Assembly (NCBI RefSeq): GCF_049274795.1
Contig: NZ_JBASTH010000100.1
Location: forward strand, 31,719-95,718
Direction: 5' to 3'
Source: Aquabacterium sp.
GTDB lineage: Bacteria; Pseudomonadota; Gammaproteobacteria; Burkholderiales; Burkholderiaceae_C
Length of the DNA stretch: 64,000 bases
This document shows positions 1,597 through 61,171 of the stretch, piece by piece; the first letter of the stretch is position 1, and each line of letters starts with the position of its first letter. The notes beneath the pieces are model-generated. The model saw nothing but the letters and a program-made list of their open reading frames with translations, searched no databases and was not told where the DNA came from. A program made the translations under genes and the position numbers.

Positions 1597-1880
1597 GAGC
1601 AGGCTCCTCGTTGAAGCGCCTTGGGGCTGGGCGCCGCGGTTGAACACGAGGGAGCAATTTCCTGGCCGGGCCCTGCCGATCATGGATGGCTGGGGGCTGC
1701 TTGAACGCTTCTACTCCGCGCCAGCATTGTCGCAAGCTTCATGCCGACTGTCCAGATGACGCGCGGCATGGCAGAGCACCATGCTGGGGCATGACGCGCC
1801 CTCAACCCGCCCGCAGCCCACCCTTACACTGGCGCCTTGCAGTTCCACCACAACCGCGTCCACTTGACGCCTAGGCCCCG

Positions 1881-2732: not shown

Positions 2733-2760
2733 CGGGGCTATCGCCAGGCTGGCAGCCGGC

Positions 2761-4311: not shown

Positions 4312-7300
4312 CCAATCCCTTCCGTCTCACCCTTCAACACATCGACGGAGCTGAACAAATCGGCCGCCTGTGCTTCCATGACGCTTTGCTCGTCGGTGAC
4401 CTGGCCTCTGTCAAGTCCATTGCTCCCATCGCCATCGCCGTCGGCGTCGGGCGGCACCGGCCCACCCATCACCGGCATCGGGTCGATGGTGCGCCAGGCA
4501 GGCACGGTGACCATCATGCTGGTCATCAGGCCGGCCGCCCGGGCAGTCCACCACACCGCGCCCACCGACAATGCCACACTCGAGCCCTGCATGACCGGAG
4601 AATCAAGCACCACCAAACGGGATTCCTCCACGGATTGCGCATTGAACGGAATCCGTGTAGGGAAAGTGCCCCCCTGCATACCCGGAATGGGCTGCAGCTG
4701 CAGGGTAAGGCGCCCCCTGTCCTTTAGGTCCAGGTTCAGGCGCTCGAGCAACTGCAACAGCGTCGAGCCGTTGGTGGGAGCATCGAAGGGCGGGCGCATG
4801 TTCAGCCCGATCTGGAAATCCAGGGCGGGGGCTGCGGGCAGGCCATCTGCGGCGAACGGCCCGGCCGCCGCAGGCAGCATCAGCCCCAAACCCGTGGGAA
4901 GGGCCGAAGGCAAGGCGGCCGGCAATGGCGACAGCGCCTCGCTGGCCAGGGCTGTGGCCACATCGCTCTCTCCGTCGGTGGGTGCATCGCCCGTCCCGCC
5001 CTCCCGCGCTTGGCCGGTTGATGTCGGCACACGCTCCGTAGCGCTCAACAGTGCGGAAACGGTGTCGGCCGCCATAGGAGGCGACAGCAGGCTGAAGGTG
5101 GCCACCGTAGGCGTTAATGGAGTCAATGGAGTCAATGGAGCCAGCCCTGACGAGGCTGCCGGAAGAACAGGCAAAAACCCCGGGGCGGGTGAAGGGGCCT
5201 GAGGCACGGGCTCTTCAGGTTCTGGCTGGGGCCCTGGCTGGCTCACGCTCAGGGCCACCAGCTTCTGTGCGCTGTCGCTCTGGCCATCGCTGACGACATA
5301 GGCCCAGTCATCCTGACCGGAGAAGCCTGCATCGGCCTGGTAGCGCAGCACGCCGGCCTGGTCCAGGCTGAGCTGGCCGTGGCGCGGCCCCTGCACGACA
5401 CGGATGCTCAAGGTGTCGCCTTCAACGTCTGCAGCCTGGGCGGTCAGCTCGCTCAAGGTCCACTGCGCCTGTGGGCCTATCGCCAGGTTCAGAACGCCAG
5501 CGGTCATCGCAGGCGCGTCGTTGACTGCGTTGATCTGCAGTTGCACCGTGGCGGCCTGGCTGTCGAGCAGGCCGTCACTGGCCACGTAGGTGAAGGCGTC
5601 GTTGCCATGGTAGTCGGCATCAGGCCGGTAGCTCCAGCTGCCATCGACCTCGATGTTCAAGGTGCCATGGGCCGGCCCTTGCAGCAGCCTCATCGACAGC
5701 GCGGGGCTGTCCACATCCACGTCATTGCCCAGCAGATCCAGGCGGGTGCCGAAGAGCGTGGCGTCCTCGTCCAGCACGAAGCGGTCATTCACGGCCACGG
5801 GGGCTTCGTTGACGTTGTCCACGCGCACCACCAGGTCACGCCAGGTGCTCAACTGCCCGTCGCTCACCTGGACACGCACCTCGTAGAGGTTATCGCCATC
5901 GGCATCCATCGGCGTTTCATGGTCAGGCGCACTGGCAAAGGACAGCACGCCGGTATCGGCATCAATGCGCAGCCACGAGGCATCCGCGCCACCGGTGAGG
6001 CTGAAGCTCAAGGCCCCGCCCGGGGGCAGATCCGGATCGGTTGCGGTGATTTGGCCCACCAGCGTGCTGTTCTCGTTCACGCTGAACAGCGCCCCGCCCG
6101 TGAACACCGGCGCGGTGTCGTTGAGATCGCTCACACGCACAGACAGTTGCCGCAAGGTCGTGAAAACGCCATCGCTCACCTGCACGGTCAGCTCATAGAC
6201 ATTGTCTGCATCGGCGTCGAGCGGCGCCTCGTGGTCCGGCGCAGAGGCAAAGCGCAAGGCGCCCGTGGCAGCATCGACCATGAAACTGGCCGCATCCTGC
6301 CCCGCCACCAGGCCGTAGACCAAGCCACCCACCGGAGGCGTGGCATCAGCATCGACTGCACTGAGCACGGTCACGGCCTGGGTGTTCTCTGCCACGACAA
6401 AGGCGGCGCCCCCTGTGAACACTGGGGCCTGGTCATTGGCATCCAGCACCCGCAACAGCAGGTTTTGCTGGGTGCTCAGCAGGCCATCGCTCACCAGCAC
6501 GCTCACTTCATAGAGGTTGTCCTGGTCGGCATCCAGGGGCTGCTCATGGTCCGGCGCCTGCAGGAAACGCAGTTCACCCGTGTCCGTGTCGATCGAGAAC
6601 AGCGCAGCATCGGCACCGCCCTGCAGGCTGAAGCTCAGTCGCTGCACCGGCACATCCAGATCCTGCGCCGTGACCTGCAGCACCGTGGCGCTGTTCTCGG
6701 TCACGTCCACCGCGCTGGCGCTGGTGATGCTGGGGGCATGCAGGTTGCTGGGCAGCACGGCCACGGACAGAAGCTGGCTGTCGGTGAATTGCCCGTCCGA
6801 CACGCTCACCTGCACCTGGTAGATGTTGTCGCCATTGCTGTCCAACGGCACGGCCCACACGGGTGGGGCCAGGAAGCGCAAGGCACCAGTGCCTGCGTCG
6901 ATGGTGAAGAGCAGCGCGTCATCACCACCGGAGATGCTGTAGTTCAAGACCGCAGCGGGCCGATCGGCATCCACCGCTGTCACCGTGGTCACGTCCAGTC
7001 CCAGTTGCACGACATTGACATGGCCCGTGGCACCGCCGCCCTGGCTGGTGATCACAGGCGCGTATTCATTGACACCCAGCACCGTGATGCTCAGTTGCTG
7101 AGCATCTGCCCCACCCACGCCATCACTGACACCGACGATGACCTCGTACACCGCATCCGCGTCAGCATCCGTCGGGTTCTCCCGATCCGGCGGGGCGACG
7201 AAGCGCAGCACGCCCGTGGTGGCGTCGATCGTGAAGCGAGCCGCATCGGCGCCACCGGTGATGGCATAGCTCAGTGTCTGCAAGGGTTCGTCCGCGTCCT

Positions 7301-10300
7301 GCGCCGTGACGGCGGTGACCACGCTGCTGCCTTCGGCCACCGACAGGCTGGCCGTGGCACCTCCACCACCAGACGTGATCTGCGGCTGCGCGTTGGTGAA
7401 GGACACCTGCAAGGCATTGGAAAACTCGCTGGTGCCGAGGAAATCACCGGCCAGGGTGACCGTGGCCGTGACCCATTCGCCGTCCAGCACGCCGGCCAGG
7501 TTGTTCACATTGAAACTGGCCGTACCCGCCACCGGGGTGACCAGGGTCGAGCCCAGGTAGCGCTGCCCTTGCCCGCCCGTGCCACCGCTGGCATAGAACT
7601 CCACCCGGGCCACACCCAGGACCAGGGCCGACACCTGCACCTGCCCGCTCACCACGGTGACCGTGCCGTTGCTCACAGCGGTGAGCAGCATCGGTGTGTT
7701 GTTGAGAAAGTTGGGGCCGCTGTCCAGATCGCCCGCGTCATTGGCCGTGGGGCCATCCAGCCCCAGATCGATGCCCGGGGCCCCATTGCCGTACAGGCTG
7801 TTGCCCAGGAAACTGCCCCCCACACCGCTGAGCATGCCGATGCCCGCACCGCCATTGCCTGCGATGACATTGCCTTCGCCCGGGTTGACACCGCCCACCA
7901 TCACGTTCGATGCGGCCACCAGCACACCCTGCGTGCCGTTGCCGCGCAGCACGGCACCGCTGCGGTCGGTGCCGATCAGATTGCCCTGCACCACATGCTG
8001 AGCCAGCGACACCGCCGACACATAGAAGGCCACGCCAGCCCCGGCATTGCCTGACAGCACATTGCCGGCACCTACGTCGCCGCCACCGACCAGCGATGCC
8101 CCCAGTGTGCGGATCTCCACGCCGTTACCGCCGTTGGCCAGCGCTGCACTGCCTGAAGCATCCAGCCCCGCCACATTGCCCTGCAGCACCGTGCGCTGGT
8201 TGGCGGCCAGCACACCACCCAGCGTGTTGCCGGAGATCAGATTGCCCTCGCCCACGCCTGTTCCACCGATCGTGGCCGTGCCCAGCCCCGCCAGGGCCAC
8301 CCCCCAGCCATTGGCCACGCTCACCATGCCGGCGGCATCCGTCCCGATGTAGTTGCCCAGCACGCGCGTCCCTGCGGTCAACCCATCGAGGTAGATGCCG
8401 CGCTCCGCGTTGCCACCGATCAGATTGCGCTCGGACAGCGTCGCGCCGCCGATGCGCACCTGGTTGCCCCAGGACTCGATGCCGTCGGACAGGTTGCGCT
8501 TGCCTGCGCCCGCATCACTGCCATCCGCATTGAACGAGCCGAGGTAGTTGCCTGTGATGACGTGGTTGTCCGAGCCCGCGTCGATGTGGATCGCATCGCC
8601 ATTGAAGCCCCTGATCACCAAACCACGCACCGTGCTGCCATCGGCCGTGGCGCCCAGCGTGATGCCGTTGCCCGTGACGCCGTTGCCATCCAGAACGATC
8701 AAGGGGTGGCTGCCGGTTCCAGGCTGGCTCAGGCCATCGATCACCACGGCCTGCGTGATGGTCGGCAGTGCACTGCCCAGCACGATCGTGTATTCACCCA
8801 GGCTGCCGGCCGTCCCGGTGAAGGCGAAGCGGATCGTGTCCACACCCGGCGTGTTGTTCGCCGCGATCAGGGCTTCGCGCAGCGATACCGCACCATCCGT
8901 ACCCATCTGTGCATTGAGTTGTTCGATCGTGAAACTGTTACCCAGGCCGGTGTCATTGGTGTCGGCCGTGGTGCTCACCACGAGTTGCGACGAGGCATCG
9001 AGCACCCGCACCGTGATGGCCTGCTCGTCATGCCAGGTGCCATCGCTGACACGGACGATCAGTTCATAGGCATTGTCGCCATCGGCATCGACTGGCAACT
9101 CGTAATCCGGTGGGAGCACAAAGCGCACGGCGCCCGTCGCCGCATCGATCACGAAACGGGCAGAATCGACACCGCCGCTGATGCTGTAGACCAGCGGGGT
9201 TGAGGGCAGATCGGCATCGACCGCCGTGACCGTGGTCACCGTGGTGAGCGTCTCCATGATGCTCACGGTGGCCGCGGCCCCGCCGCCCAGGCTGGTGATG
9301 CGCGGCACCTCGTCGTTCACGCCCGTCACCGTGACGGCAATGGCCTGCGTGTCGATGGCCGATCCATCGCTGACCTGAACGATCACGTCATAGACGTTGT
9401 CCGCGCCCACATCCTGCGGGGCATCATGGTCCGGCGGCACCAGAAATCGCAGCACACCCGTAACGGCATCGATGGCAAAACGCGCGGCATCTGCCCCACC
9501 GGCCAGGCTGTAGCTCAACTGGCCAGCGCCCAGATCGGCGTCCGTGGCGGTGATGGTGATGACCTGGGTGTTGTTCTCGGCCATGGACACGACCGCGCTG
9601 GCGCCGCCCCCCAGGCTGGTGATGATGGGCGCTTGGTTGCCCGCCAGGATCTGGCGCTGGAAGAACACGCCGGTGGAGATGCCCGTGTCCGTGCCCGTCC
9701 ACACCACGACGGCCTGGGCGCCCTGGCTGGCCACGCTGGGCCGCACCTGATCGCCGGCCGTGGTGGTGTTGACGCGTACCTCGGGATCGCCCAAGGTGCC
9801 ATCGGTCAGGATCTCGCGCCAGTAGATGCCGGCCCCTGAGCCGTCCTGCCCCTGGCTCTGCCAGGCCACGACCGCCCGCCCGCTGCTGTCCATCGACACG
9901 CTAGGCGCCGTCTGTGCATCGGCCGTGGTGGTGTTGAGCTTGAACTCGGCACCCAGCGCTGCACCACTGCCCACGGAGAACCAGCGCCCGAAGATGTCGC
10001 TGCTGCCATCCTGCGTGCTGGTCCATGCCAGCAAGGCGCGGCCATTGCCGTCCACGGCCAGGCTCGATTCCGATTGCGTGCCCACGCTGCCTTGCGGCAC
10101 CGTGACCGGGCTGCCGATCGCCGCACGGCTGCTGTCGTAGAACTGCGCGAACACCCCGTCGCCACCACCCGTCCAGCTCAGCACCGTGCCGGAAGGACTC
10201 ATGGCCACGGCCACCTGGCTGGCCACAGCGCCCGCATTGATCACCTGCGAACCCAGCAGCGTGCCGGCACTGTCCAGCCAGGCCAGCACCACGTTGTTGC

Positions 10301-11561
10301 CGATGTTCCAGGCCACCGCCGTATTGCCGCTGGCATCCATGGCGACCGCGGGTGTGACCTGCGGGTTGCCGGTGAGCACGCTGCCCAGCAGCCCTTCCAG
10401 CAGGTTGGCACCCGCCACGGTAATGCTCGCCGTGCGGGTGCCGGACGCATCGAACACGTCGAGCTTGACATGGGCATCGGCCAGCACCAGGCCCAGCACG
10501 CCTGGGTAGTACTCGAAATAGGCCACGGCGGTACGCCCACCCGCATTGCCCGCCACGGCCGAGCCGTAAGCGGTGTACATGTTGTTCACCGTCCCTGACA
10601 TGGTGGCATCGACACTGCCATCGGCGTTGTAGCGCTGGTAGGCCACGTCGCCACCGGTGTTCCAGATCGCCGTGAACCGCCCTTGCCCATCCATGGCCAC
10701 GCTGCGCGGCCCGGTGGTGTTCTCGGCCACCAGCGCAGTGGCCGTGTGGGCGGCGGTCTGGCCGCCATTGGCTTGCACCAGCAACTGCCCTGTCCATGTC
10801 TCCACGCCGCCCACGCCCATCAGGCCGGCCGCCTCGATGGGGCCGGTGTGGTGCTCGAGCACCCAGTCACCACCCAGTGCGGCATTGGCGCTGAGGTCAT
10901 CACTGGCCGCGACATCGGCCCCTGTCAGCAAGGCCATGTCGGCCACCAGGGCACGGCCGGCCGGCGTGGCAGCCAGGTCGCAGCCATAGAGCAGCAGGTC
11001 GGCATGCTCGCTCAGCGCCGTGCTCCATGAGGTGAGCGCCTGGGCTTGCCCGGCCAGGGTGGAAGCGTCGATCCGGGTGGTGCCAAGTTGCAGCCCCTGT
11101 GCATCCGCATGCGCCAGGATGTGCACGGCATCCATCTGGTGCATCGAAGCCAGCGTCGCGGTGATGAAGGCCAGGCCATCCTCACCCGCCGGGATCGCCA
11201 CGACCTGCAGGTCGCGCCCCGAGTCTTGCCGTGCAACCTGGCGCAGCGCATCCAGCAAGTCTCCGGCACCGTCCATGCTCATGTCCACAAAGGCCACTTC
11301 ATGGCGCACGGGCGAAGCAGCCGTGTCGGCTGGCGCTTCGGGCTGGGCGACATACCCCGCCGCATGGCCCCCGCTCAAAGGCGCCAGCATGTACTGCAGG
11401 CTCAGCGATGCCGCAGCAGAGGCGTGATCAGGCGGCTGTCCCGTGCTCAGCGCAGGGCAAGGCAAGCCCACGGCCTGGGCCAGGTCCGCGGAATAGAGCA
11501 ACCGTGCCTCGAGTTCTTCGAACACGAAGCGCGGGCCTCGACATCCAGTCGTTGCCGACAT
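4308..11561 (-). CDS. giant (2417 aa) cadherin-repeat surface protein with a DUF4347-like N-terminus and a CSLREA/right-handed beta-helix module
   Basis: The N-terminus has the EELEARLLYSADL motif plus GADLLLYGCDLAATPAG...GADVAASDDL..GGDWVLE, a DUF4347-type pattern. This is followed by W-rich repeats (AVAW/LLAW/VVAW...GS.GIF.R). There are about 10 cadherin-like ~100-aa repeats (V.V.DVNDxAPxITS...AxDADxP...YS..GGxDAAxFxID..TG.L.F). A VSLREALIAANNTPGVDTIRF segment is followed by PbH1-like G-N-x-I-G repeats, and two VNDAP Ig-like modules follow those. No Sec signal peptide and no GGxGxD RTX nonapeptides were seen. Confidence 0.85.
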   Translation of the reverse strand: MSATTGCRGPRFVFEELEARLLYSADLAQAVGLPCPALSTGQPPDHASAAASLSLQYMLAPLSGGHAAGYVAQPEAPADTAASPVRHEVAFVDMSMDGAGDLLDALRQVARQDSGRDLQVVAIPAGEDGLAFITATLASMHQMDAVHILAHADAQGLQLGTTRIDASTLAGQAQALTSWSTALSEHADLLLYGCDLAATPAGRALVADMALLTGADVAASDDLSANAALGGDWVLEHHTGPIEAAGLMGVGGVETWTGQLLVQANGGQTAAHTATALVAENTTGPRSVAMDGQGRFTAIWNTGGDVAYQRYNADGSVDATMSGTVNNMYTAYGSAVAGNAGGRTAVAYFEYYPGVLGLVLADAHVKLDVFDASGTRTASITVAGANLLEGLLGSVLTGNPQVTPAVAMDASGNTAVAWNIGNNVVLAWLDSAGTLLGSQVINAGAVASQVAVAMSPSGTVLSWTGGGDGVFAQFYDSSRAAIGSPVTVPQGSVGTQSESSLAVDGNGRALLAWTSTQDGSSDIFGRWFSVGSGAALGAEFKLNTTTADAQTAPSVSMDSSGRAVVAWQSQGQDGSGAGIYWREILTDGTLGDPEVRVNTTTAGDQVRPSVASQGAQAVVVWTGTDTGISTGVFFQRQILAGNQAPIITSLGGGASAVVSMAENNTQVITITATDADLGAGQLSYSLAGGADAARFAIDAVTGVLRFLVPPDHDAPQDVGADNVYDVIVQVSDGSAIDTQAIAVTVTGVNDEVPRITSLGGGAAATVSIMETLTTVTTVTAVDADLPSTPLVYSISGGVDSARFVIDAATGAVRFVLPPDYELPVDADGDNAYELIVRVSDGTWHDEQAITVRVLDASSQLVVSTTADTNDTGLGNSFTIEQLNAQMGTDGAVSLREALIAANNTPGVDTIRFAFTGTAGSLGEYTIVLGSALPTITQAVVIDGLSQPGTGSHPLIVLDGNGVTGNGITLGATADGSTVRGLVIRGFNGDAIHIDAGSDNHVITGNYLGSFNADGSDAGAGKRNLSDGIESWGNQVRIGGATLSERNLIGGNAERGIYLDGLTAGTRVLGNYIGTDAAGMVSVANGWGVALAGLGTATIGGTGVGEGNLISGNTLGGVLAANQRTVLQGNVAGLDASGSAALANGGNGVEIRTLGASLVGGGDVGAGNVLSGNAGAGVAFYVSAVSLAQHVVQGNLIGTDRSGAVLRGNGTQGVLVAASNVMVGGVNPGEGNVIAGNGGAGIGMLSGVGGSFLGNSLYGNGAPGIDLGLDGPTANDAGDLDSGPNFLNNTPMLLTAVSNGTVTVVSGQVQVSALVLGVARVEFYASGGTGGQGQRYLGSTLVTPVAGTASFNVNNLAGVLDGEWVTATVTLAGDFLGTSEFSNALQVSFTNAQPQITSGGGGATASLSVAEGSSVVTAVTAQDADEPLQTLSYAITGGADAARFTIDATTGVLRFVAPPDRENPTDADADAVYEVIVGVSDGVGGADAQQLSITVLGVNEYAPVITSQGGGATGHVNVVQLGLDVTTVTAVDADRPAAVLNYSISGGDDALLFTIDAGTGALRFLAPPVWAVPLDSNGDNIYQVQVSVSDGQFTDSQLLSVAVLPSNLHAPSITSASAVDVTENSATVLQVTAQDLDVPVQRLSFSLQGGADAALFSIDTDTGELRFLQAPDHEQPLDADQDNLYEVSVLVSDGLLSTQQNLLLRVLDANDQAPVFTGGAAFVVAENTQAVTVLSAVDADATPPVGGLVYGLVAGQDAASFMVDAATGALRFASAPDHEAPLDADADNVYELTVQVSDGVFTTLRQLSVRVSDLNDTAPVFTGGALFSVNENSTLVGQITATDPDLPPGGALSFSLTGGADASWLRIDADTGVLSFASAPDHETPMDADGDNLYEVRVQVSDGQLSTWRDLVVRVDNVNEAPVAVNDRFVLDEDATLFGTRLDLLGNDVDVDSPALSMRLLQGPAHGTLNIEVDGSWSYRPDADYHGNDAFTYVASDGLLDSQAATVQLQINAVNDAPAMTAGVLNLAIGPQAQWTLSELTAQAADVEGDTLSIRVVQGPRHGQLSLDQAGVLRYQADAGFSGQDDWAYVVSDGQSDSAQKLVALSVSQPGPQPEPEEPVPQAPSPAPGFLPVLPAASSGLAPLTPLTPLTPTVATFSLLSPPMAADTVSALLSATERVPTSTGQAREGGTGDAPTDGESDVATALASEALSPLPAALPSALPTGLGLMLPAAAGPFAADGLPAAPALDFQIGLNMRPPFDAPTNGSTLLQLLERLNLDLKDRGRLTLQLQPIPGMQGGTFPTRIPFNAQSVEESRLVVLDSPVMQGSSVALSVGAVWWTARAAGLMTSMMVTVPAWRTIDPMPVMGGPVPPDADGDGDGSNGLDRGQVTDEQSVMEAQAADLFSSVDVLKGETEGIG

Positions 11562-11588: not shown

Positions 11589-12728
11589 TCATCGCAAGGA
11601 CAGCAAGGGGCGATCAGTATCCAGTGACGACAAACGTGGCACGGACAACTGGGACGACATGGAGAGCCGGGGCTCCTTCGACGTCAGGTATTGCTTGACC
11701 AGCATCCGCTCGGGGGCCTGTGAGGCCGTGGCCAGGCGTGTGGACAGCTGAGAGACGGGCCGCGCCTGGTCTGGCACCGTCTGAGGGGAAACAGCTTGCT
11801 GCACCCGCGTCGGCTGCGTGGCGGCGACGGGTGTCGGGAGTGTCTTGGGCGGCTTGGCGGGCAGTGGCGCCTTGGTGGGCGTGACCGCGCCGGGTTGCGC
11901 GGGCGCAGAAGGCGCAGCCGGCGGCAACGATGAAGCGAAATCCACCCGGCAACGCAAGCCCGAGGGGATGCGGTTGTCGGGATTGGGCAGTGTCAGCCGC
12001 ACGCGGAAACTGTTGGAGGCTGGGTCGATCACCCGGTCCACCAGCACCACCTTGGCGGACAGCGCGTTGAAGTTGGGCAGATCGGTGCGGATCGTCGCCA
12101 CCTGGCCCATGGCGATGCTGCCGAACTGCGAGGCCGGCACGATGGCCTCGACACGCAAGGGATCGATGCGGGCCACCCGCACCACCGGTTCACGCTCGAT
12201 GCGCTCACCTTCGGTGCGGTAGCGTTCGATGACGATGCCATCGAAAGGGCTGCGCACATCGCGCTGGCCCAATTGCGCGGCCGACAAGCGGTATTCGCGC
12301 TGGGCCACCTTCTGGGATTCACGGGCCTGCGACACCCGTTGTTCGGCCACACGGTACTCGGCATCGGCCTGGTCAACGGCCTGGTCGGAGACGAACTCCT
12401 GCTTGAGCAGATCCTTGGCGCGCTGCCATTTGCGCTGCGCCAGTTCCGCCGCGGCGATGGCCTGGCGCAGTTCGGCGTCCGCCTCGGAGCGTGCCTCGGC
12501 AATCGACACCGATGCCCGTTCGACCTGGGCAGACAGGCGTGCCAGCACCTGCCCGGACACCACCTGATCCCCTCGCTCGACCAGCATGCGTTCAAGCACG
12601 CCGATGAACTGGCTGCCGACATCGGCCACGCGGTCGGGCTCGACCAGGCAGCCCATCACCTCGGCATGCGCCGATGCCAGCACCGAGGCACTGGCCATCA
12701 ACGTCATCAGGGGTTTGAGGAAGGACAT
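11589..12728 (-). CDS. periplasmic adaptor subunit (membrane-fusion protein, RND/HlyD_D23-like) with a Pro-rich C-terminal tail
   Basis: It has a signal peptide (MSFLKPLMTLMASASVLASAHA), a lipoyl/coiled-coil/beta-barrel pattern (VSGQVLARL...coiled coil...VRSPFDGIVIERY...VDRVIDPASNSFRVRL) and a ~110-aa P/T/Q-rich tail. No cognate inner-membrane transporter gene lies next to it. Confidence 0.75.
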   Translation of the reverse strand: MSFLKPLMTLMASASVLASAHAEVMGCLVEPDRVADVGSQFIGVLERMLVERGDQVVSGQVLARLSAQVERASVSIAEARSEADAELRQAIAAAELAQRKWQRAKDLLKQEFVSDQAVDQADAEYRVAEQRVSQARESQKVAQREYRLSAAQLGQRDVRSPFDGIVIERYRTEGERIEREPVVRVARIDPLRVEAIVPASQFGSIAMGQVATIRTDLPNFNALSAKVVLVDRVIDPASNSFRVRLTLPNPDNRIPSGLRCRVDFASSLPPAAPSAPAQPGAVTPTKAPLPAKPPKTLPTPVAATQPTRVQQAVSPQTVPDQARPVSQLSTRLATASQAPERMLVKQYLTSKEPRLSMSSQLSVPRLSSLDTDRPLLSLR

Positions 12729-12908: not shown

Positions 12909-12944
12909 GAAAAACCCTGCTGAGCGCGCCAAAGGTGCAGGGTT
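12909..12944 (-). terminator. Rho-independent terminator downstream of the SecA-like gene
   Basis: On the minus strand an 8-bp stem (AACCCTGC ... GCAGGGTT, plus-strand arms at 12913-12920 and 12937-12944) is followed by TTTTTCGCCTTTT. Confidence 0.6.
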
Positions 12945-14980
12945 CAGACCCCGCCGTCGCGCCCTGCCCACGCCAACTGGCGCCGCATGGCCCACTGCAT
13001 CTGTAGTAAATGCCAGCGGCGCCAGAAGGCGCGGCGCCCTTCCTGGTGCTGGATCAAGCCGCACAGCGCCCTGGCCAAGGCACCCGCCTCCGCCTGATCG
13101 CCTGCGGCCACGCGCAACAGCCAGGCTTTCCAGCCCTGCGTTGCCCAGGCGTGGATCGCGTCGTCAGAACGGGCCAGGACGCATTCGAACGATCCTGGCT
13201 GCCCTTGCCGTGCCGACCGCCCGTACAGCTGTCGATCGATGCGGCGCGAGGCATTGAGGTGCGTGTTCACCACGTGCAGCCCGCCTTGCGCCAGCACGGG
13301 CGGCGTGACGTGGATGTCGGTGCCGCGCCCCGCCATGTGCGTGGCCACGGTGATCGCGCCAGCCAAGCCTGCCTGCTCGATCACATCGCGCTCGGCTTCA
13401 CCTTCCTGCCCGTCATGGCGCGCATTGAGCACCCGGTGCGCCAGCCCCTGCGCCTGCAGCACGGCAGACAGGCGCTCGGAATCGGCCACGGTGTCGGTGC
13501 CCACCAGCACGGCACGGCCTTGCGCCACCTGCCGCGCCACACGCTGCGCCACCAGCGCCCATTTGGCGCGGGCATCCGCGCACAGCGCCATGCCCAGATC
13601 CTGCCGGCGGCCAGGCTGCTTGAGCGGCACCTGCAGCACCGGCAGGCCATAGATGGCCAGCAGCTCGCGCCGCTCTTCCCACAGGGTGCCGCTCAGCCCG
13701 CACACGTGGTGGTAGCGGGGAAAGAACTCCTGGTAGGTGGTCTGCGACACGGTTTCCGTCTCCGGCGTGGCCACCAGCCCCTCCTTGATGCAGACCATCT
13801 GGTGCAGCCCGCGCGACCAGGCCCGGCCGATGGCCAGGCGCCCCGTGGGGCCATCGATGATGTGCACTTCGCCATCGCGCAGCAGGTAGTGCGCGTCTCG
13901 CTGCAGCACGTGCAACGCCGTGAGCGCCAGGCTCACCTGCTCTTCGCGGTAGCGCTTGAGCTTCCAGGCGCCTTGCAGATTGGCCGACAGTGAGGCCAGG
14001 CGCTCCTGGCCCGACTCATGCCATGTCAGCTCGTGCTGTGCCCTCCACTCGAAATCCCGCCCCGCCTGCATCTGGCGCGCCAGGAACAGCGAGAGCCGGT
14101 GCTGCTGCTCGGTCTGGCGGGATGGCAGAGCCTGCGACAGCACCAGGGGCGTGCAGGCCTCGTCGATCAGGATGCTGTCGGCCTCGTCGATCACGGTCAT
14201 GCACAAGCCGCGCAACACCACGTCCCCCTCCTGGCCCTGTGCACGCGCGGCACGATCACGCAGGTGGTCAAAGGCCACTTCCTTGGCCGTCACGTAGAGC
14301 ACGTCGTGCTCATAGGCCAGGCGGCGCTCGGCGGCGGTGCTGGCTGCGGTGATCCAACTCACCCTCAGCCCCAGCGCGACATACAGTGCAGCCCACTGCT
14401 CCGCATCGCGCCGTGCCAGGTAATCGTTGGCCGTCATCACGTGCACGGGTACACCGGCCAGCGCGGCCACGCCCGCCGCCAGCACCACGGTCAGGGACTT
14501 GCCCTCCCCCGTGGCCATCTCGATCAGCCGGCGCCCCAGCATCCACCAGGCGCCCGAGAGCTGGACATCGTGCACCTGCCAGTTGCGCTGCTGTGCCACG
14601 CGCAGGCACACCAGGCCCATCGCCCGTGCGGCCAGGGCATCGGTGAAGCCTTGCACCGACAGCGCGGCCCTCAGGCGGTCCACGTGCTCATCCAGTTCAG
14701 CCGGCGCCAAGGCTGTCCACCGGGCCTGCGCCTCGCGCACGCTCTGGACGAAGCGTCGCGTGCGCCCCGCCGACGGACGGCCAGGCATGCGCCACCGCGC
14801 CTGCAGCCAGGCCCAGGTCGGGCTGGCCGACAACGCGGGCACCTCGCGCTCCGGATAGGCCCCCAGCACGGAGCCAGGCACGGGCAGGTGCGCCCCCAGG
14901 GCGATGCGCTCGGACCAGATCGCGTGAGGCGTGAGGTGCCCAGCGCGAGGCGACTCGGCCTTGGCAGGCAGCGGTGTCAT
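12944..14980 (-). CDS. SecA-like DEAD-motor ATPase, truncated (678 aa, no helical-scaffold/wing C-terminus)
   Basis: It carries SecA hallmark motifs: Walker A EMATGEGKSLTVVLAAGVAALAGVPVHVMTANDYLARRDAE, Walker B/DEAD VIDEADSILIDEACTPLVLS, and NBD2 VLVGTDTVADSERLS...RVLNARHDGQEGEAERDVIEQAGLAGAITVATHMAGRGTDI...RIDRQLYGRSARQG. The protein ends about 90 aa after the second nucleotide-binding fold. Its start overlaps the upstream stop (ATGA at 14977-14980). Confidence 0.8.
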   Translation of the reverse strand: MTPLPAKAESPRAGHLTPHAIWSERIALGAHLPVPGSVLGAYPEREVPALSASPTWAWLQARWRMPGRPSAGRTRRFVQSVREAQARWTALAPAELDEHVDRLRAALSVQGFTDALAARAMGLVCLRVAQQRNWQVHDVQLSGAWWMLGRRLIEMATGEGKSLTVVLAAGVAALAGVPVHVMTANDYLARRDAEQWAALYVALGLRVSWITAASTAAERRLAYEHDVLYVTAKEVAFDHLRDRAARAQGQEGDVVLRGLCMTVIDEADSILIDEACTPLVLSQALPSRQTEQQHRLSLFLARQMQAGRDFEWRAQHELTWHESGQERLASLSANLQGAWKLKRYREEQVSLALTALHVLQRDAHYLLRDGEVHIIDGPTGRLAIGRAWSRGLHQMVCIKEGLVATPETETVSQTTYQEFFPRYHHVCGLSGTLWEERRELLAIYGLPVLQVPLKQPGRRQDLGMALCADARAKWALVAQRVARQVAQGRAVLVGTDTVADSERLSAVLQAQGLAHRVLNARHDGQEGEAERDVIEQAGLAGAITVATHMAGRGTDIHVTPPVLAQGGLHVVNTHLNASRRIDRQLYGRSARQGQPGSFECVLARSDDAIHAWATQGWKAWLLRVAAGDQAEAGALARALCGLIQHQEGRRAFWRRWHLLQMQWAMRRQLAWAGRDGGV

Positions 14981-17145
14981 GCCCTCACATCCGAGAAGTG
15001 CTTGAGCAGCAATTGCCGCAGGCGCTGCAGCACGGTGTCCAGCAGGCTTTGCGGCGCCAGATCCAGCCGCACACGCGCCAGCCCACCCGCGCGTGCCAGC
15101 CCGTGGTTGAGCTGCACGTCCACCACATAGGTGGGCTCCATGGGGCGCAACCCTTCCTCGTCGGACGGATCGGTGGGCACACGTCCGCCCTTGCGGTCAC
15201 CCATGGTGGCCTGGGGCAGGCGGTCGGTGGCCGCTGGCACCTCGCGCAGCAGGTGCGCCGGCATCGCATGGCCCGGGGATTCGTCGAGCATCACCTGCAC
15301 CGTGCGCAAGCGGTGGCGCACGCTGTCGATGTCACGTTGGGGCACCACGGCACGGATCACCGCCGGCCGGTCGTTGAGCACATGGGCCAGCACCTGGCCG
15401 CGGTTCACCTGCAGGCCTTCGAGATCCTCCTGGCGGGACATCACGAACCTGCCGGATGTGCCCGCACGCAGCACATTGGCTGCCAGATCCCGGTCGACCT
15501 GGGCCAGCGTCGCCCGATCACGCGCCAGGGCTTCCTGGGCATTGCGCATCTTCAAGGGCTCGCTGCCGAACGAGGCGTTGAACTCGGCTTCGGAGCGTTC
15601 GATTTGCGCCTGCAGCACTTCGCGCTGGGCACTGAGCGTGGGGGATTTCAGCGACACCAGCTTGGCGCCCTCTTCCACCGGCGTATCGCTGCGCGCCCAC
15701 ACCGTTTCGACCTCGCCATCGGCGGCGGCCCGCACCAGGGCATCGTCAGGCAACCAGACCATGCCCTCCACCACCATCGACGAAGGCAACGGCACCAGCA
15801 TCGCGGCAGCCCCGCCCAGCACCACCGCCCCGCCCACGGCCGTGACCAGCCGCCCACGCAGCGCCGTGACGCTGGGCTGGGATGCCAGCGCCTGCGTCCA
15901 CGCCCAGATGGGCTGGGCGAACAGGGTCCAGAAGGACCACGCCGCCACGCCCACGCCCAGCCAGGTGGCCTTGTCGGCCGCCCAGCTCACGATCAGCGCA
16001 CTGACCGCGACGCGGTACACCCACGAGGCCGGCGCATACAGCCACAAGGCCCAGCGCTCGAACGCGTCGGCCGCGGTGACGTTGTTGTCGAACGCATCGC
16101 GCCGCACGCCCAACAGCCCCATGAACAGCATCCGCCAAACCTGTCCCATCGTGCGGCCGCTTCGGCCCGCAAGGTTGGGCAGGTCCAGCGTGTCGCACAG
16201 CACATAGTAGCCGTCGAGCTTCATCAAGGGGTTGCCGTTGAACAGCAGCGTGGACAGGCCACCCAGGCTCATCACCACGAAGCTGGCTTGGCGAACCCAG
16301 CCGTCTTCGACATTCAGCCACACGATGGCTGCCAAGGCCGCCAGGGCCAGCTCGACCCCGATGCCCGCCACGCTGATGCGCGCCCGCTGCCAGCGGTTGA
16401 CCAGCCGGTTCGACGAACTGGCATCCACATAAGGCATGGGCACGAACATGAAGAAGTTCACCCCCACCTCGGGCACCTCGCAGCCATAACGCCGCAGCGC
16501 CAGTGCATGCCCCAGTTCGTGCAGGGCCTTCATCAGCGGGTAGATCACCCAGGCCGCGGCCAGATAGCCCGGCGACATGAAGTAATGGCGACCATAGGCC
16601 AGCACTTCGGACAGGTTCACCAGCACGGCCCAGGTGGCCCCGATCACCAGCAGGAACCAGAAGGCCGTGGCCCAGCTGTTCCAGAACAGCCTGCCCAGCG
16701 GCACCAGGCGCTCGAGCATGGCCGAAGGGTTGAACAGTCCCAGCCTGAACGACAAGGGGTTGAGGCGGGCGCGCTTTTCCTTGCGATGGCGCTCGTGGCC
16801 ATCCTTGACCAGTTGCCGCACATCGGGCGCCACCTCGGCCTGGATCAGGCCAGCATCGGTCATCTGGCCGAGGATGCGGATCACGTCGTGCTGCGAAGGG
16901 ACCTCGTCGCCCAACTGATCGAGCAACACACTCCAGACCTCATCCACGCTGTGCCGGCCATCGAGCCGGCCGACCAGCTCATACGCCTGGGCATTGACGC
17001 GGTGATAACGCCCGGTGGCCTGGTTGAACATCACGTACCAGGCCTGGCCGCGCGTGGTCTGCATGCGCACCGACACGTGCGGCTTGAGCCGCGGGTGCAG
17101 CGCCGAGATGCGGTACCAGTAGGGAGACAGGAGGGTGTCCTGCAT
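14977..17145 (-). CDS. fusion protein: PqqD-like (RRE) N-domain + M50/site-2-protease-like polytopic membrane metalloprotease + HlyD-like periplasmic adaptor
   Basis: Residues ~15-105 (HPRLKPHVSVRMQTTRGQAWYVMFNQATGRYHRVNAQAYELVGRLDGRHSVDEVWSVLLDQLGDEVPSQHDVIRILGQMTDAGLI) fit the PqqD pattern. An HELGH zinc motif (KALHELGHALALRRYGCEVPEVGVNFF) lies within multiple hydrophobic helices. The C-terminal ~270 aa have a coiled-coil/barrel adaptor pattern (LVSLKSPTLSAQREVLQAQIERSEAEF...RAGTSGRFVM). Confidence 0.7.
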   Translation of the reverse strand: MQDTLLSPYWYRISALHPRLKPHVSVRMQTTRGQAWYVMFNQATGRYHRVNAQAYELVGRLDGRHSVDEVWSVLLDQLGDEVPSQHDVIRILGQMTDAGLIQAEVAPDVRQLVKDGHERHRKEKRARLNPLSFRLGLFNPSAMLERLVPLGRLFWNSWATAFWFLLVIGATWAVLVNLSEVLAYGRHYFMSPGYLAAAWVIYPLMKALHELGHALALRRYGCEVPEVGVNFFMFVPMPYVDASSSNRLVNRWQRARISVAGIGVELALAALAAIVWLNVEDGWVRQASFVVMSLGGLSTLLFNGNPLMKLDGYYVLCDTLDLPNLAGRSGRTMGQVWRMLFMGLLGVRRDAFDNNVTAADAFERWALWLYAPASWVYRVAVSALIVSWAADKATWLGVGVAAWSFWTLFAQPIWAWTQALASQPSVTALRGRLVTAVGGAVVLGGAAAMLVPLPSSMVVEGMVWLPDDALVRAAADGEVETVWARSDTPVEEGAKLVSLKSPTLSAQREVLQAQIERSEAEFNASFGSEPLKMRNAQEALARDRATLAQVDRDLAANVLRAGTSGRFVMSRQEDLEGLQVNRGQVLAHVLNDRPAVIRAVVPQRDIDSVRHRLRTVQVMLDESPGHAMPAHLLREVPAATDRLPQATMGDRKGGRVPTDPSDEEGLRPMEPTYVVDVQLNHGLARAGGLARVRLDLAPQSLLDTVLQRLRQLLLKHFSDVRA

Positions 17146-17160
17146 GATGCGCCCCGCGGC

Positions 17161-18696
17161 TTAGAACCACGACCAGGTCAGCATGCCCAGCCAATCCCAG
17201 GCGCGCATGAACCAGCGGGTGAGCAAAGGCCGCGCAGGCAGCTCGACCTTGGCCACCCCTTCCAGGCCGGGCCGCAGCCCCGCCAGGCCAGCGCCCTTGC
17301 CTGCCGGCCAGGCCTCGACCTCGTAGCGCACGCCATCGGCGGTGCTGTGGGCCACGGGTGTGACACGGGCCAGCACCAGCGCGATGGGCTGCCCTGGCAT
17401 GGCCGCCAGGCGCAGCGACGCGGGCTGGCCTCGCTCGAGCTGCGCCACGTCGGATTCGCTCACCTCCAGAATCACGCGCCAATCCAGACCAGGGGCCAGC
17501 GTGAGCAGGGTCTCGCCGCGCTTGACGGGGCCACCCAGTTGCTGGCGCAGATCCCCCTGGATCACGACACCATCGAACGGCGCCGCCAGGCGCACGCGCG
17601 CCAGTTGCTGCTCGACCAGTCCCAACTGCGCCTTGGCTTCGGCCAGCTTGGCCTGGGCCTGGGCCGCCTGGGCGCGGTCACCACGCGCGAAAGCCTCCGC
17701 AAAGGAGTTCTCCTGCTGCGCCACCTCGGCCTGCCGTGCTCGGCGGGAGGTCTGCAACTCATCGTCGGACAGTTCGGCCAGCACCTGGCCCGCCTTGACC
17801 ACATCCCCCGGGCGCACGTGCACCTCACGCAGGTAGCCATCCTGGGCGGCACTGAGCACGCGCTGCACAGCGCCTTCCAGGCGGGCCGTCGCGCTCACGT
17901 GATAAGGCATGGGCCACAGCAGCCCGACCGTCAACAAAAAGATGGCCGACAGCATCGACCAGCGCAGGCGGCGCTCGGACGGATCCTTCAGGCGATAGCT
18001 CAACACGATGGCCTTGGCGCGCACACGCTCCGACAAGGGCCGATCCAGCTTGTAGCGCAAGTACAGCAAGGGCGCCAGGCCTTCGGCCAGTTGCTCCAGC
18101 CAGCGGACTTCCTGCGGCTCGAAGGCCACCCGCACCACCTCGTCGATCACCCGCACCGCGAGCGGATCGGACGTGACGGAACGCTCGCAGGTGATCACCC
18201 CGATCACACGGCCCTTGTGTGCCAGCGGCACGCTGACCACGCCACCCAGGCCCTGCAACTTGAACAGGCTCTGGTGGGCCAGGGTGATGCGCACGGCATT
18301 ACGCGTGGCCTGGGGCCACGACAGCGTGGTGTGCTGGTGCACAGCCTCCAGCATGGCCTGGTTCAGTTCGGGAATGGCCTGCCCTTCGGCCAGCACCACC
18401 CCATCGGACAAAGCAACGATGCGCAACTGCCCCGCCGCCACCCAGCCGATCGACACCCGCAGGCATTTCAGCCGCTGCCCGATCTCGGACACCACTTCTG
18501 CCGCGCTGCCTTGCCAATCCTTTGCGTCCAGCGCCGTGCGCAGGCAGCCCAGCACCGCCGCCACGGACTCCGCATTGAGCGACGCACTGGCAGCGGCCGT
18601 CTGAGCCGTAGGCTGCGCTGCCATGGTGGTGGCGCCGCTCAACGGTCGGGGGGTCGGGATGGGCATTTCGTCAGGCAAAAGAAAATCGACCTTCAA
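17161..18696 (-). CDS. fusion protein: cytoplasmic GAF-like domain + single TM + HlyD-family adaptor
   Basis: The N-terminal ~200 aa look GAF-like (RVSIGWVAAGQLRIVALSDG...GGVVSVPLAHKGRVIGVITCERS). A TM helix follows (MLSAIFLLTVGLLWPM). The rest is HlyD-like (VHVRPGDVVKAGQVLAELSDDELQ...coiled coil...LAAPFDGVVIQG). The ORF-track start at 18696 is a TTG, so the true start is uncertain (in-frame ATG options downstream). Confidence 0.7.
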   Translation of the reverse strand: MKVDFLLPDEMPIPTPRPLSGATTMAAQPTAQTAAASASLNAESVAAVLGCLRTALDAKDWQGSAAEVVSEIGQRLKCLRVSIGWVAAGQLRIVALSDGVVLAEGQAIPELNQAMLEAVHQHTTLSWPQATRNAVRITLAHQSLFKLQGLGGVVSVPLAHKGRVIGVITCERSVTSDPLAVRVIDEVVRVAFEPQEVRWLEQLAEGLAPLLYLRYKLDRPLSERVRAKAIVLSYRLKDPSERRLRWSMLSAIFLLTVGLLWPMPYHVSATARLEGAVQRVLSAAQDGYLREVHVRPGDVVKAGQVLAELSDDELQTSRRARQAEVAQQENSFAEAFARGDRAQAAQAQAKLAEAKAQLGLVEQQLARVRLAAPFDGVVIQGDLRQQLGGPVKRGETLLTLAPGLDWRVILEVSESDVAQLERGQPASLRLAAMPGQPIALVLARVTPVAHSTADGVRYEVEAWPAGKGAGLAGLRPGLEGVAKVELPARPLLTRWFMRAWDWLGMLTWSWF

Positions 18697-18814
18697 TCAT
18701 TGATCCCGCAGCGCGTTACATACAGGGGGACTGCCCTATCATCAACACTGTACGGGCGCCCAAGCGTCAAATAAGCACGGAAAACCCCCCGGTATAGACA
18801 ATCTAGGAGCTGTG

Positions 18815-19531
18815 ATGAAGGTTTTGCTGATCGACGACCACCCTCTGATCCTGGCGGCCCTGCAATCCGTCATCCAGGGGCTGGGTGATGATGTCGAGGT
18901 TGCGGCGGCCGCCAGCGGTGCCAGCGCGCGGGCCATGCTCCAGGCCGACAGCACGTTCGATCTGGTCCTGCTGGACCTGCACCTGGGCGATGCCGACGGC
19001 TTCGATCTGCTGACTGAGTTCCGCGGCGCTTACCCGGGTCTGCCAGTGGTCGTGGTGTCGGCCTCGGACCGCACGTCTGACGTCATCCGCGCGATCGACC
19101 TGGGCGCGATGGGCTTCGTGCCCAAGCGTGCCAGCAACGAAACCCTGGTGGACGCACTGCGGCAGGTGATTTCCGGAGGCGTGTACGTGCCCCCGTTGAG
19201 CATGGGCACCACGCTGGCTGGCGCCGCGGGCTCGGTGCAGCAAGAGGCCAATGCCGCGGGCTTCCAGACCGCATCGCTGGCCCAGTTGGGCCTCACGCAA
19301 CGCCAGACGCAGGTGCTGGCGCTGCTGCTGCAAGGCCAGCCCAACAAGCTGATCGCCCGCGAGCTGGAGCTGTCGGTCGAGACCATCAAGGACCACGTCG
19401 CCTCGGTGCTGCGCATCCTGCGCGTGAGCTCGCGCACCCAGGCCGTGATCGCCGTCAGCCAGATGCTGCAGGCGCAGGATCAGCGGGCCGCCAACCGATT
19501 CTCGGCATGGCGGGCCTCCGGCCGACGTTGA
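18815..19531 (+). CDS. NarL/LuxR-family response regulator (REC + HTH_LuxR)
   Basis: The REC domain shows KVLLIDDHPLI, DLVLLDLHLGDADG and FVPKRAS. The LuxR HTH is LTQRQTQVLALLLQGQPNKLIARELELSVETIKDHV. AGGAG lies 5 nt upstream of the ATG at 18815; the ORF-track start at 18812 is a GTG. Confidence 0.85.
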   Translation: MKVLLIDDHPLILAALQSVIQGLGDDVEVAAAASGASARAMLQADSTFDLVLLDLHLGDADGFDLLTEFRGAYPGLPVVVVSASDRTSDVIRAIDLGAMGFVPKRASNETLVDALRQVISGGVYVPPLSMGTTLAGAAGSVQQEANAAGFQTASLAQLGLTQRQTQVLALLLQGQPNKLIARELELSVETIKDHVASVLRILRVSSRTQAVIAVSQMLQAQDQRAANRFSAWRASGRR

Positions 19532-34529: not shown

Positions 34530-34784
34530 GGGAAACCCCGGTAAAACTTGATGAGGCATGAACCGGGACGCTGAGAGCGTGAGCACCGGTCCATGCGGAT
34601 GACTGGCCGTTATGAACAGTGATGGACGGTGATGAGCTTAGAAAGCCCTGCAAGGAGCAAGACCGGAAATACCGCCCTCAATCCCTGCCATCTCCGTCAC
34701 CGCCCAAAAAATGAGCTACGGACGTCTTATCGGTTGGGAAAACCATGTCTTTAGTAACGTTCTTCAAACGAGCACGGCATCACG

Positions 34785-36782: not shown

Positions 36783-36785
36783 CCC

Positions 36786-42389: not shown

Positions 42390-42393
42390 GGCG

Positions 42394-46011: not shown

Positions 46012-46175
46012 AAGGGATGGCAACACCAGCCTTTTCCCTCTTGAGCACGGCCAGCGCTGTCGCCACGCACCAAACCGGGAACTGCACACGATTTCCGGGC
46101 CTATTGCCCCGGATGTCCGGCGCTCGCAGAACTAAGCTGTCGAGCAACATCGGCCCACGGCCCCACGAGACAGAC

Positions 46176-60964: not shown

Positions 60965-61171
60965 GTGAACGCCTCACTCTGCATCAACCAGTTTTCTTGT
61001 AGAGATAACGCAACTGCTGATCGGCACCACAAACATAGAATTCGCGCCTCGCTTCGGTGAGGCACAAGCGGCCACCTCACGACGCAGCAAACAATAATTT
61101 TGTAGGTTGAGATGTTGATACAAAACCATGGAGGCCCATCGGGCGCAAAGCCTGTTGATGGTGTTCAAGGC

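Follow-up and report, generated by a model that had tools for sequence, protein, structure and literature searches.

A conserved gene cassette with a truncated SecA-like ATPase and a PqqD-M50-HlyD fusion as candidate exporter of giant LEPR-XLL proteins

How do some of the largest bacterial proteins leave the cell that makes them? LEPR-XLL is an annotated yet unexplained N-terminal tag carried by a number of these giants, and we know of no exit route established for LEPR-XLL proteins. The question is raised by a 64,000-nucleotide stretch of Aquabacterium sp. (NCBI RefSeq assembly GCF_049274795.1, contig NZ_JBASTH010000100.1, positions 31,719 to 95,718 of the forward strand), referred to below as the window. 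Here, a gene for a 2417-aa LEPR-XLL protein adjoins a cassette encoding a GAF-HlyD fusion, a fusion of PqqD-like, M50 metalloprotease-like and HlyD-type adaptor domains (the M50 fusion), a truncated SecA-like ATPase and a small periplasmic adaptor. The reading favoured here, with moderate confidence and from gene comparison and structural models, is that the cassette may be a machine dedicated to the adjoining LEPR-XLL giant adhesin, exporting it across the whole envelope and acting as its leader peptidase.

Domains were called with Pfam and NCBIfam profiles at their curated cut-offs, and structures were modelled with AlphaFold and compared by Foldseek. Relatives of the M50 fusion were found in at least 594 genomes in a scan of one genome per species. 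Gene order was then read in a sample of 80 loci from Alpha-, Beta-, Gamma- and Deltaproteobacteria, Nitrospira, Omnitrophota and others, covering at least four phyla, and fractions for gene order are given over the informative loci (70 for GAF-HlyD, 68 for the SecA-like gene, 63 for the small adaptor). Giants in GC-rich loci were located by six-frame motif and hidden Markov model (HMM) searches, and complete operons were taken from annotated plasmid records, in which the N-termini of the giants were read. Gene content, conservation of catalytic motifs and a two-way linkage between the cassette and LEPR-XLL/DUF4347 giants are what this analysis establishes; all functional statements are drawn from comparative genomics and structure prediction. 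The cassette and the presumed cargo lie in the window as follows.

17161-18696, minus strand: GAF-HlyD fusion gene (open reading frame (ORF) with Pfam and NCBIfam profiles), with a cytoplasmic GAF domain at about 18082-18504, one hydrophobic segment at about 17899-17961 and a periplasmic adaptor at about 17287-17874
14977-17145, minus strand: PqqD-M50-HlyD fusion gene (Pfam PqqD, Peptidase_M50, HlyD_3), with a PqqD-like domain of the RiPP recognition element (RRE) type, where RiPP stands for ribosomally synthesized and post-translationally modified peptide, at 16840-17094, a polytopic M50/site-2-protease-like membrane domain at 15799-16725 and a periplasmic adaptor with an alpha-hairpin at 14983-15792
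16507-16521 and 16210-16239, minus strand: M50 catalytic motifs HELGH and NGNPLMKLDG, respectively
12944-14980, minus strand: SecA-like ATPase gene, 678 aa (Pfam SecA_DEAD, SecA_PP_bind, P-loop_SecA), with nucleotide-binding domain 1 (NBD1) and the preprotein cross-linking domain (PPXD) at 13661-14767 (PPXD 13793-14083), NBD2 at 13145-13606 and a single scaffold helix at 12968-13093
11589-12728, minus strand: third HlyD/RND-type periplasmic adaptor, 379 aa (TIGR01730, HlyD_D23, HlyD_3)
4308-11561, minus strand: giant presumed cargo, 2417 aa (Pfam DUF4347, Cadherin, Cadherin_4/5, Big_9)
11478-11528, minus strand: LEPR-XLL motif RFVFEELEARLLYSADL, residues 12-28 of the giant (NCBIfam NF012209)
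10788-11297, minus strand: DUF4347 domain, residues 89-258 of the giant (Pfam E 1.3e-40)
4461-4583, minus strand: C-terminal hydrophobic segment and PAWRxIDP(L/M)P motif, residues 2327-2367 of the giant, followed by an acidic tail

The initial annotation of this locus had described the first three genes as a co-directional unit, and the minus-strand ORFs were recovered with exactly those boundaries. Both junctions it had reported are present: a 15-nt gap separates the GAF-HlyD gene from that of the M50 fusion, and the start of the SecA-like gene overlaps the stop of the M50 fusion in an ATGA. Its assignments of a GAF-HlyD protein, a PqqD/M50/HlyD fusion and a SecA motor are all supported by profile searches. 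It had counted two adaptor modules, where there are in fact three; the gene of the third, at 11589-12728, follows the SecA-like gene after 215 nt and precedes the giant gene by 27 nt. The ATGA overlaps and the 27-nt gap indicate tight coupling and count in favour of an exporter dedicated to the giant. The initial annotation had also sought a small RiPP-type precursor as substrate and had not linked the operon to the giant; the likely substrate is this adjoining LEPR-XLL protein.

The giant consists of an N-terminal LEPR-XLL motif, DUF4347, at least seven cadherin-like repeats and a C-terminal hydrophobic motif. It scores 21.5 bits against NF012209 (cut-off 17), a profile that four homologous N-termini match with 18.2-36.2 bits. 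Alignment of the N-termini of neighbouring giants gave the consensus (R/K)n-x-[LIV]-E-E-L-E-P-R-[ILV]-L-[FY]-S-A-D, placed directly after a basic stretch and taking the form RFVFEELEARLLYSAD in the window, and no Sec- or Tat-like hydrophobic core was seen in the LEPR-XLL N-terminus. Within DUF4347, H63, H67 and C110, the last in a conserved YGC motif, are invariant (alignment A3), and a TGADVAAS motif is conserved too. The histidines and the cysteine recall protease dyads, and by this analogy DUF4347 may act in autoprocessing or as a plug; its matches in a PDB profile search were all weak, among them a DUF4347 chain of unrelated context (9qpe_G, E 0.077). At the other end, the hydrophobic segment followed by PAWRxIDPLPxLG is common to the complete betaproteobacterial cargo C-termini of loci L007, L008, L018, L032 and L060, and this undescribed element may serve as an anchor or as a further signal for sorting or cleavage. 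No informative NCBIfam match was obtained for the C-terminal motif, nor for DUF3467 and SapC, two accessory families described below. The window giant has no HemolysinCabind match and no GGxGxDxUx repeats of the repeats-in-toxin (RTX) type.

Across genomes, the cassette keeps its order. The GAF-HlyD gene lies directly upstream of the M50 fusion in all 70 informative loci and the SecA-like gene directly downstream of it in 65 of 68, and a small adaptor is found in 53 of 63. The initial annotation had considered that homologues of its three genes might not be syntenic elsewhere, or that a conventional ATP-binding cassette (ABC) transporter might always accompany them; their co-occurrence is conserved across phyla, to a degree well above chance, and a complete ABC exporter is nearby in only 3 of the 80 loci. 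The 80 neighbourhoods contain no conserved ABC, resistance-nodulation-division (RND) or major facilitator superfamily (MFS) pump, SecY paralogue or sigma/anti-sigma pair beside the cassette, and no further conserved gene family. A LEPR-motif giant adjoins the cassette in 33 of the 80 loci, 32 of these with DUF4347, and in 13 more the adjoining giant ORF runs past the fetched flank, leaving its N-terminus outside, so that 46 of 80 have a LEPR-XLL or edge-cut giant. For giants that lie upstream of the cassette, N-termini were also sought among homologues of a Neptuniibacter giant fragment, but most of these were partial proteins and gave no information.

Complete operons on plasmids, listed here with the sequence read at the giant's N-terminus in brackets, display the same association.

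Methylosinus sp. C49, pMSC49a: giant of 8,847 aa (IIFDTLEPRVLLNAD), then DUF3467, GAF-HlyD, M50 fusion, SecA-like (named 'prepilin peptidase'), small adaptor, TolC
Pseudosulfitobacter plasmid: giant of 12,737 aa (LETFEPRVLLSAD), then DUF3467, GAF-HlyD, M50 fusion, SecA-like, with the small adaptor divergent upstream
Mesorhizobium ciceri plasmid: giant of 10,518 aa (FEALEPRLLLSAD), then DUF3467, small adaptor, GAF-HlyD, M50 fusion, SecA-like
Thalassospira marina plasmid: giant of 4,033 aa (VEPIEPRILLSAD), then DUF3467, GAF-HlyD, M50 fusion, small adaptor, TolC; no SecA-like gene
Azospirillum plasmid (25-31% identity): LEPR/DUF4347 giant of 3,489 aa (AMALEPRFMFDAAG), with TolC, two adaptors, M50 fusion; no SecA-like gene

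The small adaptor is present in four of the five annotated plasmid operons with a full-length match to the M50 fusion (Methylosinus, Pseudosulfitobacter, Mesorhizobium and Thalassospira, not Rhodobacteraceae M382). TolC stands within the operon on the Methylosinus, Thalassospira and Azospirillum plasmids without any ABC gene, and the Thalassospira marina giant is already named 'LEPR-XLL domain-containing protein' by the Prokaryotic Genome Annotation Pipeline (PGAP). The linkage also holds in the reverse direction. When DUF4347 domains in metagenome contigs were taken as the starting point, cassette genes were the direct upstream neighbours in 30 of the 47 loci that had 3 kb or more of sequence on that side. 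Of the 28 loci with 8 kb or more, 15 had the M50 fusion upstream. Eight of these cassettes have no SecA-like gene. The linkage to giants spans phyla and both gene arrangements.

Two accessory families are inserted in some cassettes and are absent from the window. A DUF3467 gene, present in 5 of the 80 loci, encodes about 100-128 aa, lies between the giant and GAF-HlyD, and could specify a cargo chaperone. A SapC gene lies within the cassette in 7 of 80; the SapC-family proteins are about 290 aa long and take their name from a gene in the type I secretion operon for the S-layer of Campylobacter fetus. Such insertions were seen in L082 (Methylosinus), L085 (Pseudosulfitobacter), L087 (Mesorhizobium), L089 (Thalassospira), L028, L041, L069 and others.

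Each module of the M50 fusion passes its Pfam cut-off. PqqD (PF05402) scores 33.4 bits against a cut-off of 23.4 and HlyD_3 23.9 against 22.2, and Peptidase_M50 (PF02163) passes marginally, at 30.1 bits against 27.2. In the family alignment H209, E210, H213, N305, P306 and D311 are invariant, and the HExxH motif is kept in 79 and the NPxxxxD motif in 78 of the 80 loci. Among curated families, residues 18-398 match daptide_HExxH (NF041824) best, with E 7.5e-46 but 157 bits against a cut-off of 300; YydH/LiaK (NF058609) reaches E 1.4e-07 and 31 bits against 225. In the AlphaFold model (predicted local distance difference test (pLDDT) 77), an RRE-like fold occupies residues 24-97 (strands 24-31, 34-41 and 46-51; helices 52-60, 67-81 and 85-97), where local pLDDT is only 55-75, followed by a membrane domain at 141-449 that contains HELGH and NGNPLMKLDG, an adaptor at 452-700 with a 50-residue alpha-hairpin, and a terminal helix. 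By profile score and modelled fold, the N-terminal domain is a candidate peptide-binding PqqD/RRE domain. Foldseek comparison of the whole model found adaptors only, with E as low as 5.6e-12 for the matches to MexA, AcrA and MacA, and gave no structural confirmation of the site-2-protease fold. The family is large (5,501 clusters at 50% identity, E<=1e-30) and of constant length, about 715 aa. Its members appear in public records as 'PqqD family peptide modification chaperone' or 'biotin/lipoyl-binding protein'.

The SecA-like protein is clearly marked as a motor by its Pfam matches (SecA_DEAD E 6e-74, SecA_PP_bind 5e-17, P-loop_SecA 1e-37) and by its TGEGKS, DEAD and AGRGTDI motifs; the GEGKS, DEAD and GRGTD positions are invariant in the family alignment, and Walker A is kept in all 72 SecA-like homologues. 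The initial annotation had stated that the C-terminal half of SecA is missing, and this was borne out in refined form: the family profile aligns only to residues 19-610 of B. subtilis SecA, and the AlphaFold model (pLDDT 85.6, predicted TM-score 0.83) ends in one long helix, residues 630-671 of 678. Because of this end of alignment and model, the protein is read as lacking the helical wing domain, the two-helix finger (IRA1) and the C-terminal tail, with motor, polypeptide clamp and scaffold helix kept. Its nearest solved structures are SecA chains, the best being the substrate-engaged SecA-SecY state 6itc (TM 0.79, Foldseek). It misses the cut-offs of canonical SecA (NF009538/TIGR00963, 429.7 against 814 and 425.7 against 800) and of SecA2 (TIGR04397, TIGR04221, TIGR03714 and NF012136, 295-375 bits against 725-1100). 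Residues 1-70 form an N-terminal extension not found in SecA, with invariant P35, G36, G40, Y42 and P43 (LPxPGxxxGxYP); this extension, predicted to be disordered (pLDDT <50), may be a docking peptide for a partner. Public names of the homologues are 'DEAD/DEAH box helicase', 'prepilin peptidase', 'translocase', 'hypothetical protein' and 'preprotein translocase subunit SecA'.

GAF-HlyD passes TIGR01730 at 97.3 against 94.9 and the GAF profile PF01590 at 25.4 bits against 22.4, with HlyD_3 and HlyD_D23 also matching, and the GAF domain is kept in five distant homologues. Its start codon is uncertain (TTG 18696, ATG 18666 or ATG 18624). The third adaptor scores 132.2 against the same TIGR01730 cut-off of 94.9, has an N-terminal signal peptide (MSFLKPLMTLMASASVLASAHA) and is Pro/Ala-rich in its C-terminal region. 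In PGAP annotation the adaptors appear as 'efflux RND transporter periplasmic adaptor subunit'.

Around the cassette, the window holds a possible terminator, two regulatory genes, a second export locus and some further genes.

12912-12945, minus strand: hairpin and T-rich stretch 3' of the SecA-like stop (folding energy compared with shuffled sequence)
2761-4311, minus strand: PAS-GGDEF diguanylate cyclase (Pfam GGDEF E 2.9e-44)
18812-19531, plus strand: divergent LuxR/NarL-type response regulator (Pfam Response_reg and GerE)
25356-34586, minus strand: second giant gene, 3076 aa, with 79 ALTTAQ repeats
34785-40042, plus strand: three glycosyltransferase genes adjoining the second giant
40983-42479, minus strand: TolC-like outer-membrane factor of a separate type I system (Pfam OEP E 2.4e-21)
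42394-43626, minus strand: HlyD of the same type I system
43630-46089, minus strand: ABC transporter of the same type I system, 819 aa
49473-51107 and 52734-54038, both minus strand: histidine kinases
58512-59594: Tll0287-like protein
61112-62896: ShlB/FhaC-type two-partner secretion transporter
1824-3065, minus strand: 413-aa ORF with no Pfam match, overlapping the 3' part of the PAS-GGDEF gene region

The hairpin had been taken to end the transcription unit. It exists, with a minimum free energy of -24.1 kcal/mol, but with z -1.15 it is no more stable than shuffled sequence, and the conserved cassette goes on 3' of it with the small adaptor, the giant and the PAS-GGDEF gene; as an operon-ending terminator it was rejected, and it is at most a weak or partial one. 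The PAS-GGDEF gene is translationally coupled to the giant gene by an ATGA overlap, and an orthologue lies 3' of the cassette in several betaproteobacterial loci, for example L003, L004, L007 and L033. In L003 and L004, two Aquabacterium loci, PAS-GGDEF follows the small adaptor directly with no giant between, suggesting that the cyclase travels with the cassette and that the cargo was lost or moved. The divergent response regulator is conserved at the same position in L001 and L003-L005.

The window also contains, about 22 kb from the cassette, a classical type I system (TolC-like, HlyD and ABC genes). The initial annotation's statement that no ABC transporter is encoded here thus stands for the cassette and falls for the window, the ABC gene lying by a different giant. 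The segment 25356-46089 is probably a separate export locus for a glycosylated surface protein. The cassette of this window has no TolC gene of its own, and by inference only, the TolC-like factor at 40983-42479 is a candidate for a shared outer-membrane duct. Between 48000 and 62000 the G+C content falls from about 0.67 to 0.47-0.57, and this stretch may be an acquired island. The ORF at 1824-3065 may not be a real gene. Long antisense ORFs opposite the cassette genes on the plus strand (14974-18774, 13010-13993 and 14018-15130; up to 1266 aa) are shadow ORFs typical of high-GC DNA, like those opposite homologues in other loci. Three ORF clusters of the GC-rich loci (c4, c6 and c10) were likewise discarded as antisense shadow ORFs produced by greedy ORF calling and not real families.

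How might these parts work together? From gene neighbourhoods and models we infer the identity of the substrate, leader binding and cleavage, the direction of transport, the channel-forming component and inner-membrane passage, and regulation. In the proposed scheme, the cytoplasmic PqqD-like domain of the M50 fusion would capture the giant's N-terminal LEPR-XLL leader, as RiPP recognition elements do, and the intramembrane M50 metalloprotease would remove or process it. In this clade and most lineages, the truncated SecA paralogue, which would have kept motor and polypeptide clamp while losing the SecY-docking parts, would spend ATP on threading the unfolded chain into a conduit with its N-terminus leading. 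That conduit would be made of three adaptors (GAF-fused, M50-fused and small soluble) that span the periplasm and connect with an outer-membrane duct of the TolC type. Second-messenger control of export or release would probably come from the GAF domain, the PAS-GGDEF cyclase coupled to the giant gene and the divergently transcribed response regulator. A bolder version is possible and is put forward only tentatively: a previously unrecognised Gram-negative secretion class, in which megadalton adhesins of up to 12,737 aa would have their N-terminal LEPR-XLL leader read in the cytoplasm by an RRE-like domain and cut in the membrane by an adaptor-fused M50 protease, and a SecA paralogue repurposed from SecYEG would drive N-to-C, possibly co-translational, passage through a three-adaptor/TolC conduit with no ABC, RND or MFS transporter.

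Several observations weigh against an exporter of this design. The SecA-like gene is absent from L014, L036, L053, Thalassospira, Azospirillum and eight metagenomic loci; because a minority of cassettes that are otherwise complete do without it, it is not the sole possible energiser, and its ATP-driven pushing is no universal requirement. A TolC-like gene is nearby in only 7 of 80 loci and thus usually not encoded in the cassette, and the cassette encodes no obvious inner-membrane channel; to our knowledge, M50/site-2 proteases do not act as protein-conducting channels. Some loci with full flanks, such as L050, L067 and L076, have no giant gene. Many giants of Alpha- and Gammaproteobacteria contain RTX-like repeats, which substrates of ABC-dependent type I secretion typically carry, so RTX-bearing giants could use classical type I systems, and one such system lies in the window itself. 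On the other side, the distant Azospirillum variant without a SecA-like gene keeps a LEPR/DUF4347 giant together with TolC, two adaptors and the M50 fusion. The envelope-spanning machine of the initial annotation agrees with the in-operon TolC genes (7 of 80 loci and two complete plasmids), and the energiser role it gave to the SecA-like protein does not extend to every cassette. Its proposals of gating by GAF and of a channel-like role for the M50 domain are conjectural, and its interpretation as a whole is supported in part.

The same RTX repeats and type I system, together with the coupling of a GGDEF cyclase to the giant gene and the dispensability of the SecA-like gene in some variants, would suit a Lap-like arrangement. 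In that case the giant would cross by another route, for example an ABC-type type I system, and the cassette would hold its N-terminus at the envelope until M50 cleavage freed it under GAF/cyclic di-GMP (c-di-GMP) control, with the SecA-like protein unfolding or positioning the N-terminal region. We regard this as unlikely: a complete ABC exporter is linked in only 3 of 80 loci, the window cargo is free of RTX repeats, and TolC genes in several operons without an ABC gene are hard to square with a pure tether. No LapG- or LapD-like family appeared among the conserved neighbours in the 80 loci, in which no explicit LapG/LapD profile search was made. A two-step route, with the SecA-like protein and housekeeping SecYEG moving the giant to the periplasm, the adaptors and TolC taking it across the outer membrane and M50 acting as leader peptidase, would draw on a protein that is clearly SecA-derived with motor and clamp intact, and variants without it could rely on housekeeping SecA. 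It is judged improbable: in solved complexes SecY is contacted by the two-helix finger and the helical wing domain, both missing here, the LEPR-XLL N-terminus shows no hydrophobic core of the kind found in signal peptides, and no conserved SecY paralogue lies nearby.

Maturation and export of an unannotated short precursor, recognised by PqqD and cut by M50, would be in keeping with the PqqD-M50 leader peptidases of daptide and YydF-type systems, to which the M50 fusion is related at E 7.5e-46 and E 1.4e-07. The scores fall far under the family cut-offs (157 against 300; 31 against 225), however, and beside the cassette there are no modifying enzymes and no conserved small ORF except DUF3467 in some loci; the conserved neighbour is the giant LEPR-XLL gene, which makes a RiPP-type function very improbable. 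Hardly credible is a small-molecule efflux pump or site-2-protease signalling module that adjoins the giants by coincidence, as the PGAP name for the adaptors might suggest, given the two-way linkage to LEPR-XLL/DUF4347 giants across phyla and in both gene arrangements and the lack of any conserved RND, MFS or ABC pump or sigma/anti-sigma pair.

If the cassette is a dedicated exporter and leader peptidase, which known system does it resemble? Type I secretion of giant RTX/Lap-type adhesins (HlyBD-TolC, LapBCE) also uses membrane-fusion adaptors and a TolC-type duct, co-encodes a giant repetitive adhesin and is linked to c-di-GMP, and some cassettes contain SapC. However, the cassette encodes no ABC transporter, the defining component of type I secretion, and its three adaptors, two of them fused to other modules, come with a SecA-like ATPase and an M50 protease. 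The presumed signal appears to be N-terminal (LEPR-XLL), not C-terminal, this cargo having no C-terminal type I signal or RTX repeats. Adaptors and a TolC-type factor are thus shared with type I systems (TolC not in the window cassette), whereas ABC transporter and C-terminal signal or RTX are not. As in accessory Sec systems (SecA2/SecY2), which serve serine-rich giant adhesins of Gram-positive bacteria, a dedicated SecA paralogue stands beside a giant adhesin, but here there is no SecY2 or Asp protein, the paralogue ends after the scaffold helix and misses the SecA2 HMM cut-offs, the hosts are diderm, and adaptors and TolC are involved. Canonical SecA shares with the SecA-like protein the DEAD-type motor (NBD1 and NBD2), the Walker A, DEAD and arginine-finger motifs and the preprotein cross-linking domain; the latter protein misses its HMM cut-off and has none of the parts that engage SecY, SecB and lipid.

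The RiPP PqqD-M50 leader peptidases (NF041824, NF058609) likewise have an N-terminal PqqD-like domain fused to an HExxH intramembrane metalloprotease, but the M50 fusion misses their cut-offs, has an adaptor fused to its C-terminus and is accompanied by no modifying enzymes or short precursor, its presumed substrates being 2,400-12,700 aa long. C39 peptidase-ABC bacteriocin exporters recognise a leader at the N-terminus and couple its removal to export, as proposed here, with a C39 instead of an M50 protease, an ABC instead of a SecA-like ATPase, and cargo that is not giant. In the literature searched, no description of the cassette and no function for LEPR-XLL was found, mentions of DUF4347 or LEPR-XLL being incidental. 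Judged by genes and models, the cassette is probably a widespread, undescribed and new kind of machine, yet built of known modules such as adaptors and TolC.

The LEPR-XLL tag is now tied to one conserved machine, present in at least 594 species-representative genomes. The model also corrects a systematic misannotation, in which the M50 fusion is called 'PqqD family chaperone' and the SecA-like protein goes by 'DEAD/DEAH box helicase', 'prepilin peptidase' or 'SecA'. The question is open to direct tests in carriers that can be cultured, among them Piscinibacter sakaiensis, Neptuniibacter, Methylosinus, Mesorhizobium, Thalassospira and Azospirillum. If the proposal is true, a SecA-like motor with a site-2-protease/adaptor fusion would add another inner-membrane and energiser solution beside those of the ABC, RND and MFS tripartite systems, a SecA motor would act apart from SecYEG, and leader recognition of the RiPP style would extend to giant proteins.

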